DNA from: an uncultured delta proteobacterium
Lineage (GTDB): Bacteria; Desulfobacterota; Binatia; Binatales; Binataceae
Length of the DNA stretch: 64,000 bases
Direction of reading: 5' to 3'
Assembly (NCBI GenBank): GCA_963834535.1
Contig: CAWICC010000006.1
Coordinates: 51,438-115,437 of the forward strand
How positions within the stretch are numbered: position 1 is the first letter of the stretch; the number at the start of each line of letters is the position of its first letter. The notes under the pieces were generated by a model. That model made no database searches and was not told the DNA's origin. It was given only the letters and a program-made list of their open reading frames with translations. This document shows, piece by piece, positions 27,145 to 39,410 of the stretch. The translations under genes and the position numbers were made by a program.

Positions 27145-27993
27145 TCACGCGCGCGGGGCGCGCTGCGGCAGGGGGCGGCCGAGCTCCTTCATCACGGCCT
27201 GGATATCGGACCAGACGAGGCGTTTGTCGCCAGGGTTGCGGAGCAGGTAGGCGGGATGGAACGTGGGCATCAGCTTGATGCCGCGCACCTGATGCCAGTT
27301 GCCGCGCAACTTGCTGATGGGGGTTTTGATCTTGAGGACGGCTTGGACGGCGAAGGTGCCGAGGCCGACGATGACGCGCGGACGGACGAGGTCGATTTGA
27401 CGAAAGAGGAAGGGTTCGCAAGCGGCGACCTCGTCGGCTTCCGGGTTACGGTTTTCGGGCGGGCGACACTTGATGACGTTGCAGATGAAGACGTTGGCGC
27501 GGGAGAGGCCCATACCACGCTCGATGATATCGGTGAGCAACTGGCCGGCGCGGCCGACGAAGGGCTCGCCACGGAGGTCCTCTTCGTGGCCGGGACCCTC
27601 GCCGATGAACATCAGATCGGCGTGCGGGTTACCGACGCCGAAGACGAGGTTGGTGCGCAAGGGAGCGAGCTTGCAGCGGGTGCATTCGCCGATGAACGCG
27701 CGGAGGGCGGCGAGGTCGGCGGTTTGTTGGAGGCCGGGATATTTGTCGGAGAGATTGGTTGAGGGCGGCGGCGGCGCGACCGCGAGGGCGCTCGCGGCCG
27801 GCTGCGGCGCGGCGGGGGCGCGAGTACGCGGGGCCGTCGGGGCGGGCTTGGGCGCGGCGGCGGAAGAGCCGGCGGCAGCGAGGGTGGCCGCGGCGCCGTC
27901 GAGGCCCTCGAGACCTTCCTCGCGGATTTGTTCGACGTAATCGCGGAAGGAAGCGAGCAGCGTCGCGCGGTCCGGAGGGGTGGACGGGCACAT
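27145..27993 (-). CDS. Family-4 uracil-DNA glycosylase
   Basis: CTRC, GEGPG..ED..GEPFVGRAG, KCRPP.NR.P, TFHPAYLLR. Confidence 0.94.
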   Translation of the reverse strand: MCPSTPPDRATLLASFRDYVEQIREEGLEGLDGAAATLAAAGSSAAAPKPAPTAPRTRAPAAPQPAASALAVAPPPPSTNLSDKYPGLQQTADLAALRAFIGECTRCKLAPLRTNLVFGVGNPHADLMFIGEGPGHEEDLRGEPFVGRAGQLLTDIIERGMGLSRANVFICNVIKCRPPENRNPEADEVAACEPFLFRQIDLVRPRVIVGLGTFAVQAVLKIKTPISKLRGNWHQVRGIKLMPTFHPAYLLRNPGDKRLVWSDIQAVMKELGRPLPQRAPRA

Positions 27994-32894: not shown

Positions 32895-34217
32895 CTACAG
32901 CCAGTGGCGGAGGGGAGATCCGTGGTAGCGCATGCGCGGGCGAATGAGGCGGTTGTCGGCGGATTGTTCGAGGCTGTGCGCGATCCATCCGGCGGCGCGG
33001 CCGATAGCGAAGATGGCGGCGGGCATCCCGCGCGGAAAGCCGATTAGCCGCACGCAAACGGTCAGGTAGAAATCGAGATTGGGACGGAGGCGCGCGCGCT
33101 TCCAGACGGCGTCCTCGACCCTGAGGGCGGTCTCGAAGAGCTTGCGCCCCTTGCGTTTGGCGATGGCGCGGGCGACGCGCTTGAGGAGTGTCGCGCGGGG
33201 ATCGCCATGCGGGTAGATGGTATGGCCGAAGCCGGGCGGCAGCGAATGCCTGGCGCCGAAGGCGTCGAGGGCCTGGTCGATGCGGAGGCCGGCGTCGAGG
33301 TCGGCGAACATGCTCTCGATGCGATCGCAGGCGCCGCCGTGAATCGGTCCCGAGAGCGAGCATAGGGCGGCGAGGACGGAGGCATAGAGGTCAGCGCCGG
33401 TGCTGGCGACGACGCGGGCGGCGAAGGTGGAGGCGTTGAGCTCGTGCTCGGCGCAAGCGACGAGGACGCGGTCGAGTGCGGCGCGATCGGCGTCGGAGAA
33501 AGCGGCGAGGGCGCGGGCGCCGAGACTGGCGGCGACGCCGCGAGTCTCGGCGTCGGCGGCGGCGTCGTCGTGGGCGGCGGGCGGCAGGCCGAGCGGCAGA
33601 ACCGTGATGATGAGACGGGCCTGGTCGAGGCGCGAGCGCGCGGGGAGGCGATGCTCGGCGGCGGCGAGGCTGGGCATCATCACGGCGAGGCGGAGCAAGG
33701 GCGGCGCATCGGCGCCGACGGCCGCAAGGGCGGCGACGACCGGCGGTGGAATGCGCGCCGCGGCGATGGCGGCACAGAATAAATCGACCTCTTCGGGCCG
33801 CGGACGCACGCCGCTCCACAGCAGCAGGCAGACCTCTTCGAAGGAGGCGTGTTCGATCAATTCCTCGATCGGGTAGCCGCGATAGGCGAGCTTGCCTTCG
33901 ATAATCGAGCTGACGGCGGATTCGGCGACGATGACGCCGGTGGAAGATCCGTCGCTGGGCGGCTGGGCCACGGTAACCCATGAGGACGCGTCGGGGAGGG
34001 AGCGTGCGCGCACGCCGCGTTCGGGCGCGATTACTCCGCGCAGGGCCTCGATATCGGCGCGGCGATAGAGGGCCTGGCGCCCGACCTTGCGGCGATAGCT
34101 TTTAAGCCAGCCGCGGCTGACGTAGGCGTAAAGCGTGCCGAGCTTGACGCCGAGTTGCGCCGCCGCCTCGCCCGCCGTGAGCATCTGGGCTCCGGAGTTC
34201 GTCGGATGAGCCGCCAC
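32895..34217 (-). CDS. Citrate synthase-like protein with N-terminal helix-turn-helix
   Basis: LTAGEAAAQLGVKLGTLYAYVSRG (HTH); EHELNASTFAARV, GPIHGGA, PGFGH, DPRA, PNLDF. Confidence 0.9.
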   Translation of the reverse strand: MAAHPTNSGAQMLTAGEAAAQLGVKLGTLYAYVSRGWLKSYRRKVGRQALYRRADIEALRGVIAPERGVRARSLPDASSWVTVAQPPSDGSSTGVIVAESAVSSIIEGKLAYRGYPIEELIEHASFEEVCLLLWSGVRPRPEEVDLFCAAIAAARIPPPVVAALAAVGADAPPLLRLAVMMPSLAAAEHRLPARSRLDQARLIITVLPLGLPPAAHDDAAADAETRGVAASLGARALAAFSDADRAALDRVLVACAEHELNASTFAARVVASTGADLYASVLAALCSLSGPIHGGACDRIESMFADLDAGLRIDQALDAFGARHSLPPGFGHTIYPHGDPRATLLKRVARAIAKRKGRKLFETALRVEDAVWKRARLRPNLDFYLTVCVRLIGFPRGMPAAIFAIGRAAGWIAHSLEQSADNRLIRPRMRYHGSPLRHWL

Positions 34218-34591: not shown

Positions 34592-35611
34592 ATGAAAGCG
34601 ATCGCGAAAACGCGGCCTGAACTGGGCGTGGAAATCGTCGAGGTGCCGGTGCCGAAGCCGGGCCCCGAGGAACTACTGGTGAAAGTGGCGGCCTGCGGCA
34701 TCTGCGGGTCGGACTTGCATATCTATTTGTGGGAGCTGGGGGCGGAGCGCGCGGTGCCGTCGATGCCGGCGGTGATCGGGCATGAGCCGGCGGGAGAGGT
34801 GGTGGAAGTGGGCAAGGGGGTGAGCGGTTTCAAGGTCGGCGATCACGTCGCGCTGGATCCGTTCGGACCGTGCGGGAGGTGCCCGGCGTGCACGTCGGGG
34901 CGGTTCAATTTTTGTCATACGCCGGGACGGCTGGGCGGGGCGTTTGCGGAGTACTCGATCGCGCCGGTACGCAACTCGTGGGTGGTGCCGAAGGCGATGG
35001 ACATGGAGCAGGCGGCGATGCTGGAGCCGTTCGCGACGGGGCTGCATGCGATCGAGGAATCGTCGCTGGGAGCGGGCGACAGCGCGGTAATCGAGGGGCC
35101 GGGGCCGATCGGCTTGTGCACGGCGTTGGCGGCGCGAGCGCTGGGGTTGTCGCAGATCGTAATCACCGGCCTGGCGGCCGATGCGGAGCGGCTGGCGCTC
35201 GCGCGGGAGATGGGTTTCAAGACGGTGTGCGCGTCCGATCGCGACTGGATCGACCAGGTCCGCGGGCTGCTGCCGGAGCATGGGGCGGACGTGGTTTTCG
35301 ACGCGGCGGGATTCCTCGACTCGGTGCGGCACCTGGTGAAGCGGGGGGGCGAAGTGGTCGAGCTGGGGTGGCCGGCGCGCGATATTCCGAGCGCGGAGAT
35401 GCGGTCGCTGTTTTTCCACGGAGTGAAGATAATCCCGTCGCGCGTGCGGATGCCCGAGACCTGGCGGCGGGCGGTGGCGATGGTGGCGAGCGGGGCGATC
35501 GACATGAAGCCGATGATCACGCATCGGTTCGACCTGGACCACGGGGTGGAGGCGTTCGAGTTGCTGCGCAAGCGCAAGGGCGTCAAAGCTCTGATCATGC
35601 CGCAACTGTAG
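34592..35611 (+). CDS. Zinc-dependent medium-chain alcohol dehydrogenase (Tdh/sorbitol DH-like)
   Basis: GICGSDLH, GHE..G, CGRC..C..G..NFC, GPGPIGL. Confidence 0.92.
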   Translation: MKAIAKTRPELGVEIVEVPVPKPGPEELLVKVAACGICGSDLHIYLWELGAERAVPSMPAVIGHEPAGEVVEVGKGVSGFKVGDHVALDPFGPCGRCPACTSGRFNFCHTPGRLGGAFAEYSIAPVRNSWVVPKAMDMEQAAMLEPFATGLHAIEESSLGAGDSAVIEGPGPIGLCTALAARALGLSQIVITGLAADAERLALAREMGFKTVCASDRDWIDQVRGLLPEHGADVVFDAAGFLDSVRHLVKRGGEVVELGWPARDIPSAEMRSLFFHGVKIIPSRVRMPETWRRAVAMVASGAIDMKPMITHRFDLDHGVEAFELLRKRKGVKALIMPQL

Positions 35612-35811
35612 TAGGAAGAGGCTCCATTGCGGGGAGCGCGCAGGGTCTCGGGCCGCTGATCAACTGACTATTGCGACGACTGCCTAAACGATGAGCGGCT
35701 GGACGAGGCGAGATTGCAGAGTTGGTAAAAATGAAGTAACGCGAATGCGGACTGACTATATCAACCGGACTATGCAGTTACATCAGGAAGGGTGAACTGA
35801 CTATTGAGGTG

Positions 35812-36191
35812 AACTGACTATGCGAAATGGATTCAAGATCGTCGCTACGGATTCTCATTTACATTAGGCGAGCATGCGAGCCGAGCAAACGAGTCTGCGA
35901 GGTGCGCTAAAAATTCGGAGTAACTGACTATGCGAAATGGATTCAAGATCGTCGATACGGATTCTCATCTACATTAGGCGAGCATGCGAGCCGAGCTAAC
36001 GAGTCTGCGAGGTGCGCAAACAATTCGGAGTAACTGACTATGCGAAATGGATTCAAGATCGTCGATACGGATTCTCATCTACATTAGGCGAGCATGCGAG
36101 CCGAGCTAACGAGTCTGCGAGGTGCGCAAACAATTCGGAGTAACTGACTATGCGAAATGGATTCAAGATCGTCGATACGGATTCTCATCTA
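35812..36191 (+). repeat. 110-bp tandem repeat, ~3.5 copies, containing the RBS and first 14 codons of the downstream gene
   Basis: AACTGACTATGCGAAATGGATTCAAGATCGTCG.TACGGATTCTCAT.TA recurs with ATG at 35820, 35930, 36040, 36150; copies 2 and 3 identical, copy 1 has 5 substitutions. Confidence 0.97.
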
Positions 36192-37268
36192 ATGGAACCG
36201 GAATGGCTCTGGGAGCGGTATATCGAGGACGAGTTCAAGGAGCGCGCGCCGAAGATCGGGCGGGCGCCTGAATCGAATCGGCGGACGTTCCTGGTGGAAG
36301 GCGAATCGTTCGTGCGGGAGAAGGGCAAGTATCCGATGGCGGCGCCGGCCTTTCTGAGCGCGGTCAGCAAGGCGATGAAACGCTTCGACACGGCCAAGGC
36401 GGACGGCTTCAGTGCGAAGAGCCGGCTGCACGATATGGACGAGCAGGGCGTGGACGTACAGATCATGTATCCGACGGTGGCGGGACAGATGCTGGGGCGC
36501 GAGTTTCGCGATATCAAGCTGCTGGCGGCATGTACGCGGGCATACAACGACTGGGCGTGCGACTATGCGTCGGCGGATCCGGTGCGGCTGAAATGGGCGG
36601 CGGGGTTGCCGATGCAGAGCGTCGAGGAGGCGATGAAGGAAGCGCGGCGCGCGGCGGACAAGGGCTGCATGAGCTACTACATGCGGCCGAACCCGGTGGG
36701 GGGTCATAACCTGTGGGACGACGCGCTGCTGCCGCTGTGGGACGAGATCGAGCAGATCGGGAAACCGATCTCGACGCACGAATCGGCGTCGTCGGCGGTG
36801 CCGGGCTTCGGCGACCGGATGGACACGCACGTGAGCGGGCACATCCTGTCGCATCCGTTCGAGGCGATGGCGGCGATGGCGGGGCTCATCTGGTACGGCA
36901 TCTTCGAGAAATTTCCGAAGCTGAAGGTGATTCACGTAGAGGCGGACGGCGGTTGGGTGCCGTACTGGCTGCAGCGGATGGAACAGCATTGGGAATTCAG
37001 CGGGAACGCGGAACATGAGTATTTGAAACTGCGTCCGACTGAGTATTTCAAACGCAACGTATGCGTGGCCTTCCGGGGCGACGAACCGACGATGAAAGCG
37101 GCGATCGAGCTGGTGGGGGCCGACAACTTCACGTGGGACACTGACTATCCGCATCCGGACGGCACCTATCCGTGGGGAATCGAGGCGATGCTGAAGCAGC
37201 CGATCAGCGACGAGGCGCGGCGCAAGATTTTCTGGGACAACGGGGCGCGGACGTTCAACCTGTCGTAA
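36150..37268 (+). CDS. Amidohydrolase family 2 protein
   Basis: IVDTDSH, DMDEQGVD...YPT, AYNDW, H..E, E...GW, TDYPHPD. Confidence 0.9.
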   Translation: MRNGFKIVDTDSHLMEPEWLWERYIEDEFKERAPKIGRAPESNRRTFLVEGESFVREKGKYPMAAPAFLSAVSKAMKRFDTAKADGFSAKSRLHDMDEQGVDVQIMYPTVAGQMLGREFRDIKLLAACTRAYNDWACDYASADPVRLKWAAGLPMQSVEEAMKEARRAADKGCMSYYMRPNPVGGHNLWDDALLPLWDEIEQIGKPISTHESASSAVPGFGDRMDTHVSGHILSHPFEAMAAMAGLIWYGIFEKFPKLKVIHVEADGGWVPYWLQRMEQHWEFSGNAEHEYLKLRPTEYFKRNVCVAFRGDEPTMKAAIELVGADNFTWDTDYPHPDGTYPWGIEAMLKQPISDEARRKIFWDNGARTFNLS

Positions 37269-37311: not shown

Positions 37312-38505
37312 GTGGATTTTGAATACACTCCGGAGCAGGAAGCCTTTCGCCGGGAAGTGCGGACGTGGCTGCAGGAGAACCTGCCGCCCGAACTGTGCAT
37401 CGACGATCCGATGGACGAGCGGATCGCGCCGAATCGCGAGGTCTTCGAGCAGCGGCGGGCGTGGCAGCAGAAGCTGGCAGCGGCCGGATGGGTGGGGCTG
37501 TCGTGGCCGCAGGAATATGGCGGCCGGCAAGCCCATCTGATGGAGCAGGTGATCTTCGACGAGGAGTACTTCAAGGCGCGCGCGCCGGTGCTGCCGGGCT
37601 ATTCGGGGGTGGGCCTGTTCGGACCGACGCTGATGCAGTGGGGCACGGCGGAGCAGAAGGCCAAGTATCTGCCGCGCATCCTGGCGGCCGACGACGTGTG
37701 GTGCCAGGGCTATTCGGAGCCGGGCGCGGGGTCGGATCTGGCGGGCTTGCAGACGCGGGCGGAGCTGAAGGGCGACTACTTTATAATCAACGGGCAGAAG
37801 GTCTGGACGTCGGGGGCGCAGTACGCGGACAAGATGTTCCTGCTGGCGCGGACGGATCCGGACGCGCCGAAGCACAAGGGCATCAGCTACCTGATAATCG
37901 ACGACATGAAGAGCGCGGGGGTGGAGGTGCGGCCGCTGGTGGTGATGAACGGGCATCATCATTTCAACGAAGTATTCTTCGATAACGTGCAGATTCCGAA
38001 AGAGAATATCGTTGGGCCGCTGAACGAAGGGTGGAAGGTGACGATGACGACGCTGGCATTCGAGCGCGGGATGGCGGGCGGCGGCGGACATTCGGCGCAA
38101 GTACGGCGGCTGGCGGAGCTGGCGCGAGCGATCAAGATCGAGGGGCGTCCGGCGTGGGAGCAGGAATGGGTGCGGCAGGAGCTGGCGCAATTCACGATCG
38201 AATGCGAAGCGGCGAAGTACACGCGTCTGCGATCGCTGACGCGATTGCTCAAGGGCCTGCCGCCGGGACCGGAAGGATCGACGCTGAAGCTGGTCGGGTC
38301 GGAGCTGGGGGTGCGGATAGCGCGGTTCGCGAGTGAGTTATTGGGCAGCTATGCGATCCTGGGCGAGCCGACGGATGCGGTACCGGATGCGCCGCGGTGG
38401 CAGAATCGATTACTCAGTTCGCGGCAATATACTATTGCGGGCGGCACCAGTGAGATCCAGCGCAACATTCTTGGAGAGCGCCAGCTAGGCCTGCCCAAGG
38501 GATGA
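37312..38505 (+). CDS. Acyl-CoA dehydrogenase (FadE-like)
   Basis: WPQEYGG, WCQGYSEPGAGSDLA, NGQKVWTS, FNEVFFDNV, TIAGGTSEIQRNI. Confidence 0.94.
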   Translation: MDFEYTPEQEAFRREVRTWLQENLPPELCIDDPMDERIAPNREVFEQRRAWQQKLAAAGWVGLSWPQEYGGRQAHLMEQVIFDEEYFKARAPVLPGYSGVGLFGPTLMQWGTAEQKAKYLPRILAADDVWCQGYSEPGAGSDLAGLQTRAELKGDYFIINGQKVWTSGAQYADKMFLLARTDPDAPKHKGISYLIIDDMKSAGVEVRPLVVMNGHHHFNEVFFDNVQIPKENIVGPLNEGWKVTMTTLAFERGMAGGGGHSAQVRRLAELARAIKIEGRPAWEQEWVRQELAQFTIECEAAKYTRLRSLTRLLKGLPPGPEGSTLKLVGSELGVRIARFASELLGSYAILGEPTDAVPDAPRWQNRLLSSRQYTIAGGTSEIQRNILGERQLGLPKG

Positions 38506-39343: not shown

Positions 39344-39410
39344 GCCAGCGCGGCGGGCGCGGGTCAGCCAGCGCGGCGGGCGCGGGTCAACCAGCGAGGC
39401 GGGCGCGGAG
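39344..39410 (-). repeat. 23-bp tandem duplication of the gatB 3' end including its stop codon
   Basis: GCCAGCGCGGCGGGCGCGGGTCA at 39344-39366 and 39367-39389, then gene-end copy ACCAGCGAGGCGGGCGCGGAG. Confidence 0.85.

Follow-up and report, generated by a model that had tools for sequence, protein, structure and literature searches.

A dispersed 60-bp repeat alternates with copies of an amidohydrolase gene start in a tandem array of a Binataceae genome

The array at the amidohydrolase gene start

The window, i.e. the whole 64,000-nt stretch of DNA that was analysed, comes from a metagenome-derived genome (G000; 4.2 Mb, 10 contigs, 79.64% complete). At the locus of interest, a gene of the amidohydrolase-2 family, which has no NCBIfam match, is preceded by a dehydrogenase gene whose best NCBIfam match, tdh, falls below the cut-off (Table 1). 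In the nine relatives' loci included in our tree (see below), the amidohydrolase is preceded by this dehydrogenase gene, too. Between these genes, the upstream part of the intercistronic region holds three extra copies of the motif ACTGACTAT (at 35662, 35750 and 35795) and a conserved box, GCAGTTACATC. Farther upstream, at 32895–34217 on the minus strand, is a gene whose product combines a citrate synthase domain (PF00285, E = 1.3e-84) with a DNA-binding domain of HTH_17/MerR type at the N terminus.

Table 1. Features at and around the array (positions in the window)
Feature	Position	Strand	Basis
Zn-dependent alcohol/threonine-dehydrogenase-like protein, 339 aa	34592..35611	+	ORF; Pfam ADH_N, ADH_zinc_N
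Upstream intercistronic part; native SD GAGGTG directly before unit 1	35612..35811	+	Sequence, motif scan, relatives
A1, distal decoy gene start; 2 substitutions vs true start	35812..35861	+	Copy comparison
B1, dispersed-repeat copy; 3 substitutions vs B2/B3	35862..35921	+	BLAST, nhmmer, copy comparison
A2, decoy gene start, identical to true start	35922..35971	+	Copy comparison
B2, dispersed-repeat copy	35972..36031	+	nhmmer, copy comparison
A3, decoy gene start, identical to true start	36032..36081	+	Copy comparison
B3, dispersed-repeat copy, identical to B2	36082..36141	+	nhmmer, copy comparison
A4, true initiation region and first 14 codons, ATG at 36150; array ends, gene runs on	36142..36191	+	ORF, comparison
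Mini-ORF A, 15 aa; stop TAG from B 5' end	35820..35867, 35930..35977, 36040..36087	+	Translation
Mini-ORF B, 17 aa; ATG within B, stop TGA within TAACTGACTATG	35874..35927, 35984..36037, 36094..36147	+	Translation
Amidohydrolase-2 family gene, intact, 372 aa	36150..37268	+	ORF; Pfam Amidohydro_2 PF04909, E = 1.2e-27
Acyl-CoA dehydrogenase gene, co-oriented, downstream (operon context)	37312..38505	+	ORF, Pfam, NCBIfam

TRF reports the interval 35812–36191 as a tandem array with a period of 110 bp (3.5 copies, 98% matches, 0% indels), and its score of 725 is the highest among the 41 TRF rows of the window. Other tandem repeats of the window lie at 39344–39408 (23 bp × 2.8, 95%) and 27765–27863 (45 bp × 2.2, 78%). 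A script parses the 380 bases of the array into A1-B1-A2-B2-A3-B3-A4, where A is 50 nt and B is 60 nt long. Each A consists of 8 nt (AACTGACT), the ATG and 13 further codons of the amidohydrolase. Three A copies (A2, A3 and A4) are identical, with A1 differing at two positions; B2 and B3 are likewise identical, with B1 differing at three. Because repeat units 2 and 3 match at 110/110 positions, the array is beyond chance. The initial annotation had proposed a 110-bp period composed of a gene-start part and a spacer, identical copies 2 and 3, and five substitutions in the distal copy. We recover this layout exactly, with three A-B units followed by the true start at 36150, and count two of the five substitutions in A1 and three in B1.

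The segment 35820–35927 translates to MRNGFKIVATDSHLH, a stop, ASMRAEQTSLRGALKIRSN and a second stop, such that both mini-ORFs share one frame and stand two codons apart. Mini-ORF B ends 2 nt before the next ATG in every unit. This agrees with the chain of six mini-ORFs (15 and 17 aa) described at the outset, and both frames are still open in the diverged distal unit. The longest plus-strand ORF wholly within the array spans 43 aa. Judged from sequence comparison, the mini-ORF peptides are not conserved, and it is unlikely that they are functional. All three changes between B1 and B2 are non-synonymous, and the corresponding mini-ORF B in a related genome (G004, see below) has a TTG start, a TAA stop and a different frame relation. 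The ATG of mini-ORF B is restricted to the array locus; other copies of the repeat family have TTG or CTG there.

GGAG, a putative ribosome binding site, stands 9 nt 5' of the ATG in each internal unit. It aligns with the usual 3' tail of the B repeat family (..CTCTGAG), and the native SD region is similar as well; hence, its origin is ambiguous. The heptamer TAACTGA lies about 2–4 nt before each internal ATG (GAGTAACTGACTATG) and, together with the TAG in B, closes the frames ahead of it. A promoter and terminator scan of 35400–36400 returned no promoter-like, sigma-70-like or terminator-like sites.

We also looked for the locus in public sequencing data. Seven runs were candidates, each with at most 0.11 of the sampled words. 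Four of the seven yielded pieces of 28–43 nt on B cores, 152–195 nt in the gene body and 55–185 nt in the upstream gene and spacer, with no contig spanning the array. One RNA run gave short pieces of 90–99% likeness, none across the array, which probably represent RNA of relatives. Scans of metagenome contigs for the A/B junction and for the B-to-A junction gave 0 stretches each.

A dispersed repeat family in the Binataceae

The two parts of the repeat unit are distributed very differently. A short-word BLAST against the source genome found A only at the array locus (the next best match covers 14 nt) and the core of B dozens of times, on both strands and on 7 of the 10 contigs. With nhmmer and one iteration round, we located 62 copies of a ∼47-bp core of B at 34 loci of this genome. 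Based on a crude gene finder (3,652 calls, 82.5% coding), 33 of the 34 loci are intergenic. By hand tally over the same calls, B is co-oriented with its neighbours at 19 of the 26 loci where the flanking genes run in the same direction (binomial P = 0.029). The spacer is thus a dispersed, lineage-specific repeat and not a private 5' UTR, which supports the initial annotation's view of it as a small element. A plain local tandem duplication of native sequence is rejected, since B is dispersed genome- and genus-wide and 8 of 10 orthologous loci lack it (see below).

The repeat is modular, with a 5' part (ACA)CYAGGCGAGCYTGCGAGCCGAGC, a middle part TAACGAGTCTGCGAGGTGCGCA and a tail ..AAGACTCTGAG; copies differ in how these parts are combined. 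RNA folding of element copies gave no stable structure compared with shuffles (z = 0.70, 0.34 and 0.31 for the plus strand, –0.78 for the minus strand), and an overlapping palindrome of 11 nt is the sole inverted repeat in B. Since the ends of B (ACACYAGG.. and ..GACTCTGAG) are not inverted copies of each other, it lacks terminal inverted repeats, which rules out membership of the MITEs. No consistent short target duplications were seen at B copies. A search for a Y1/RAYT transposase (PF01797) gave no matches in the 79.64%-complete genome; the control search was positive in 6 of 14 well-known genomes. Rfam had no match in 35000–37000 of the window and none in 13 loci of the family, and hence a known structured RNA is unsupported.

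An exact 24-mer of the B core retrieved 35 stretches from a collection of genomes of 185,579 species, all from five assemblies titled Candidatus Binataceae or uncultured delta proteobacterium (soil MAGs). We also searched a sample of 40 relatives with a query of 489 bp, made up of the array and the initial 151 nt of the gene. It had multiple matches in 6 of 12 congeners (G001, G003, G004, G005, G006 and G008) and in G021, which belongs to another genus of the same family; the remaining matching genomes gave one match each, and many of the matches span the core only. Among the papers listed on the Binataceae lineage or on start-codon tandem repeats, none describes this family by title or abstract opening, and the main Binatota genome paper (PMC8262859) contains no occurrence of the words repeat, interspersed, repetitive or tandem. 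By its distribution, B is a newly seen short interspersed repeat family in the uncultured soil lineage Binataceae.

The initial annotation further suggested that the element duplicates gene starts on insertion, and asked whether its core sits between duplicated starts of different genes. To assess this idea, we scanned the flanks of 127 core matches (62 in the source genome and 65 in the 35 loci retrieved with the 24-mer; about 70 loci). Long duplicated flanks outside the element were seen at three places only: the window locus, its orthologue L042/L060 (L042 being identical in sequence to the G004 locus), and C7:90350–90589, where a 45-bp non-coding flank alternates with B at a period of 112. 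All other B arrays consist of head-to-tail element copies at periods of 56–63 bp, with 2–11 units in the source genome (56 bp × 11, 63 bp × 6, 57 bp × 3.3, 59 bp × 6.7 and others). Arrays in relatives have mostly a 59-bp period (five arrays), with further TRF rows at 82, 98 and 303 bp. Of the arrays of period ≥40 in the source genome, none but the window array ends in a partial unit that contains a confidently called gene start. These data argue against a general duplication of gene starts by the element.

The largest of the head-to-tail arrays is informative about turnover. At C5:634302–634916, 11 B units follow one another with a 56-bp period and 99% match, 124 nt upstream of a gene. B is present in 0 of 9 relatives at the orthologous site, which indicates that the B family is mobile and expands on the time scale of species.

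Two other repeat types were encountered. One is a CRISPR-like array at C4:528242–530528 of the source genome, in which a repeat of 28 nt (GTTTCCCCCGCGCTCGCGGGGATAGACC) recurs every 61 bp. A CRISPR-like reading of the window array is rejected, as the pieces between its cores are identical flank copies, not unique spacers. The other is a second dispersed family, a hairpin element made up of GGGAAGTCTGAAACC, a short loop and GGTTTCAG, followed by ..AGTTC..GTTCCTCGACCA, with 56 matches genome-wide at ≤2 mismatches. Ten of the 56 copies hold a tail-less B in the loop, always in the same relative orientation, and this is the sole composite with inverted arms. Rfam had no match for nine hairpin loci with B in the loop. 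One hairpin copy lies in the window on the minus strand, from ∼34364 toward lower coordinates (G000:C6:85801).

The orthologous locus and known repeat systems

The genus comprises 13 genomes, and the orthologous locus could be recovered in 10 of the 12 congeners. It is empty in eight of these (G001, G002, G005, G007, G008, G009, G011 and G012), which have one start, preceded by ..GCAGTTACATC..GAGGTGAACTGAC(T)ATG. The GCAGTTACATC box and GAGGTGAACTGAC(T)ATG recur in 11 species with small variants. The box lies 15–55 nt upstream of the start in empty loci; in the 230 nt before the start at loci L059–L069, it also occurs as the variant GCGGTTACATC and, in G004, truncated to GCAGTTAC. A 17–23-nt duplication of the segment from SD to ATG (GGTGAACTGACTAT..) is seen in G000, G001 and G005.

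G004 has one unit, A-B-A, with the junctions at the same points as in the source genome, one of them 8 nt ahead of the ATG and the other following codon 14. Its two A copies are identical to each other (50/50) and differ from the A of the source genome at 9 of 50 positions, showing that the decoy tracks the true gene start within each species; its B is 61 nt long. The gene copies of the two genomes differ by about 15–16%. In G006, B lies in the 5' UTR between ..ACTGACTAT|TAAA and ..CTCTGAGGTAATACAC|ATG, and the gene start is not duplicated. The B tails at this locus (gcgttaaaacttccgaggtaa in G004, ..gtgcgttaaagctctgaggtaa in G006 and gcgcaaacaattcggagtaa in G000) resemble one another and are unlike the usual tail of the family, which suggests common descent of B at the locus; those of G004 and G006 have ..GCGTTAAA(A/G)CT..GAGGTAA in common. 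The 3' junction of B (..GAGGT/GGAGT + AA..) is common to all three species, so that the founding event would predate them. Thus, states of zero, one and three units are seen across species, and only the distal unit is diverged. What we describe is a real, changeable repeat array, with three units as assembled.

A tree of the two flanking genes, built for 10 genomes from 2,150 aligned columns, gives (G000,(G008,(G005,(G006,(G001,G004))))), with G002, G009, G021 and G024 outside and inner supports of 48–99. Because G000 and G004 do not group together, at least three losses plus a rearrangement in G006 are required if the array arose only once. Losses should be easy by recombination between perfect A copies, which makes the persistence of the structure notable.

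How does the array relate to known repeats? MIRUs are elements of Mycobacterium genomes and have a common consensus sequence. The initial annotation took the array for a MIRU-like element. Passages of PMC3184786 describe MIRUs as intergenic units of ∼40–100 bp, some 40–50 per genome, whose ORFs overlap at their ends with the stop and start codons of neighbouring genes in a polycistronic mRNA. Orthologous sites may be filled or empty, with tetranucleotide direct repeats at filled sites (PMC3184786). Measured against these passages, B is similar in size (∼60 bp), copy number (62 copies at 34 loci) and location (33 of the loci intergenic). The locus also resembles a MIRU site in lying between co-oriented genes, in having filled and empty states (8 of 10 loci being empty) and varying tandem copy number, and in its small ORFs beside a gene start. 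There are several differences, however, from the elements as described there. The lineage is Binataceae; the array unit is 110 bp, of which 50 bp come from the downstream gene itself; filled sites have a direct repeat of 50 bp rather than 4; the last mini-ORF B stops 2 nt before the ATG without overlapping it; and 200 nt separate the dehydrogenase stop from unit 1. Furthermore, the named records that bear the core are all Binataceae-labelled MAGs, and hence B is not filed as a MIRU. The part of the proposal that holds is the VNTR behaviour, evident from the empty sites and from one unit versus three; a general copying of gene starts does not. By analogy, then, the array is a MIRU-like VNTR and not a member of the MIRU family.

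Other known systems are more distant. REP/BIME elements with RAYTs are imperfect palindromes that form a stable stem–loop and have a cognate Y1 (IS200-like) transposase, according to passages of PMC2817692 and PMC3184786. B resembles them in being high-copy, intergenic, modular and clustered in tandem, but its units are all head-to-tail, whereas those of REP/BIME alternate in orientation. Membership as defined in those passages is rejected, given that B has no stable stem–loop and that no Y1/RAYT gene was found in the (incomplete) genome. STAR elements of staphylococci are direct repeats interspersed in intergenic DNA, and related genomes differ in how many they contain (PMC3532100, abstract opening). 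B shares these properties and differs from STAR in sequence, unit structure and lineage; gene-start capture is not mentioned in that abstract opening.

Heptamer direct repeats of TAACTGA have been reported upstream of start codons in Beggiatoaceae, Cyanobacteria and Bacteroidetes, as two or more adjacent heptamers that mostly end a few nucleotides before the start codon (PMC4679880, in part). Similar features here are the heptamer before each internal ATG and the direct-repeat clusters of ACTGACTAT, some of them just before start codons. In contrast to the repeats of that report, each unit of the array has one heptamer, 110 nt from the next, and the ACTGACTAT motifs are spaced 12–18 nt apart elsewhere and only weakly enriched. 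With no directly adjacent heptamers in the array, membership as described there is rejected, and the resemblance may be coincidental, a loose analogue.

Origin of the array and alternative readings

The reading we favour, with a probability of roughly 0.6, is that the array is a minisatellite (VNTR) in which a one-off duplication placed B between direct copies of A, followed by turnover of the units. A-B-A cannot be derived from a single A and a single B by tandem duplication, and hence one event must have duplicated A with B at the joint. Either a replicative template switch or an insertion that duplicated a long target could have been this founding event, the two being indistinguishable here. 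A return switch could have been guided by the likeness of the usual B tail (..CTCTGAGG) to the native SD region (..TTGAGGTG). Thereafter, slippage or unequal exchange between perfect repeats of 50–110 bp would expand, contract, delete and homogenise units. The same turnover would explain the three units, the losses, the identity of the proximal copies and the divergence of the distal edge unit. Some observations sit less easily with this reading: it would be surprising for an unstable A-B-A to last through about 15% gene divergence if neutral; B has neither terminal inverted repeats nor a stable fold, with no Y1 transposase in the 79.6%-complete genome; and the tree separates G000 from G004.

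If the array is transcribed, the mRNA would carry three decoy start sites, and ribosomes should start on them. Each decoy would open a 15-codon ORF closed by B's TAG, followed by a 17-codon ORF closed within TAACTGA. Conceivably, the array is a selected translational device, in which decoy starts and coupled mini-ORFs set amidohydrolase output as a relay or decoy sink and the number of units acts as a tunable contingency switch. A deletion-prone structure kept in two species whose gene copies are 16% apart, decoys that track the true start in each species, and stops (TAG and TAACTGA) that close all frames before each ATG, with mini-ORFs open even in the diverged unit, are consistent with this idea. 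We nevertheless regard it as doubtful: the array is missing from 8 of 10 orthologous loci, the peptide of mini-ORF B shows no conservation, with another frame and stop in G004, and concerted evolution by unequal exchange accounts for the identity of the copies without selection. On the favoured reading, an effect of copy number on amidohydrolase translation, as suggested by the initial annotation, is plausible and would be expected to be modest at most.

Alternatively, an active, non-autonomous B may target this site, perhaps the ACTGACTAT/GAGGT region, and may have inserted independently in G000, G004 and G006 with target duplications of ∼50 bp. G000 and G004 are indeed not sisters in the local tree, and the A copies are identical within each genome, as would be expected after a recent event. 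The second A-B-A array, with its 45-bp non-coding flank at C7:90350, fits as well, as do the 10 of 56 hairpin elements that have B in their loop. B in G006 is flanked exactly by two copies of a ACTGACTAT-type motif, and in G000, G001 and G005 the motif is doubled with 3–9 nt between, which could be a footprint. Yet a long flank duplication is present at only 3 of ∼70 loci (127 matches), one of which is the orthologue, and the atypical B tails and B-to-A junction common to three species suggest descent. Together with the lack of a transposase, terminal repeats or consistent short target duplications, this makes recurrent insertion unlikely.

One can also combine elements of these views. A selfish 60-bp repeat might have been domesticated to supply stops and spacer, with the start copies selected and homogenised as a copy-number-tunable relay or sink in at least two species, a contingency locus that would act on translation initiation; we consider this distinctly unlikely.

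What the array multiplies could instead be an operator or promoter, with ACTGACTAT as a putative protein-binding site. The motif occurs nine times in the window at ≤1 mismatch versus 0.89 expected; seven of these lie within 490 bp at the array, one in every A copy and three upstream. For ACTGACTA, 53 of 113 occurrences are intergenic by the crude gene calls, compared to ∼17.5% of the genome, and they often form clusters of 2–4 direct repeats 12–18 nt apart. However, the enrichment of ACTGACTA is weak (113 occurrences, compared with 78 on average and up to 552 for permuted octamers), and 35400–36400 contains no sigma-70-like promoter, making a multiplied operator or promoter improbable. Intergenic clusters of ACTGACTAT-type motifs are also seen at G000:C6:352746–352780, C4:69695–69900, C5:407623–407770 and C10:278836–278856, and one three-motif cluster ends 23 nt before a called start; such clusters are possibly candidate protein-binding sites.

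That the repeat number, or the whole A-B-A, was misassembled in a metagenome-derived genome is very improbable: although the assembly has 10 contigs at 79.6% completeness, units 2 and 3 are identical, and no public run with the locus was found, the same architecture is seen in a separate genome from a second species, built there around an A particular to that species, and the five differences in unit 1 mean that at least two distinct units exist.

As compared across these genomes, the unusual twist of the array is a unit with a captured gene start, homogenised and present also in a second species. The locus shows that short interspersed repeats can capture the start site of a gene and copy it in series. 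With four start sites, three of them identical, start calling and assembly become error-prone at such loci. Decoys that track the true start in each species provide a small, clean case of concerted evolution. As B arrays differ among related genomes, they are potential VNTR markers for strain typing in soil metagenomes. If copy number alters expression, the array would represent a simple natural design for the tuning of translation.
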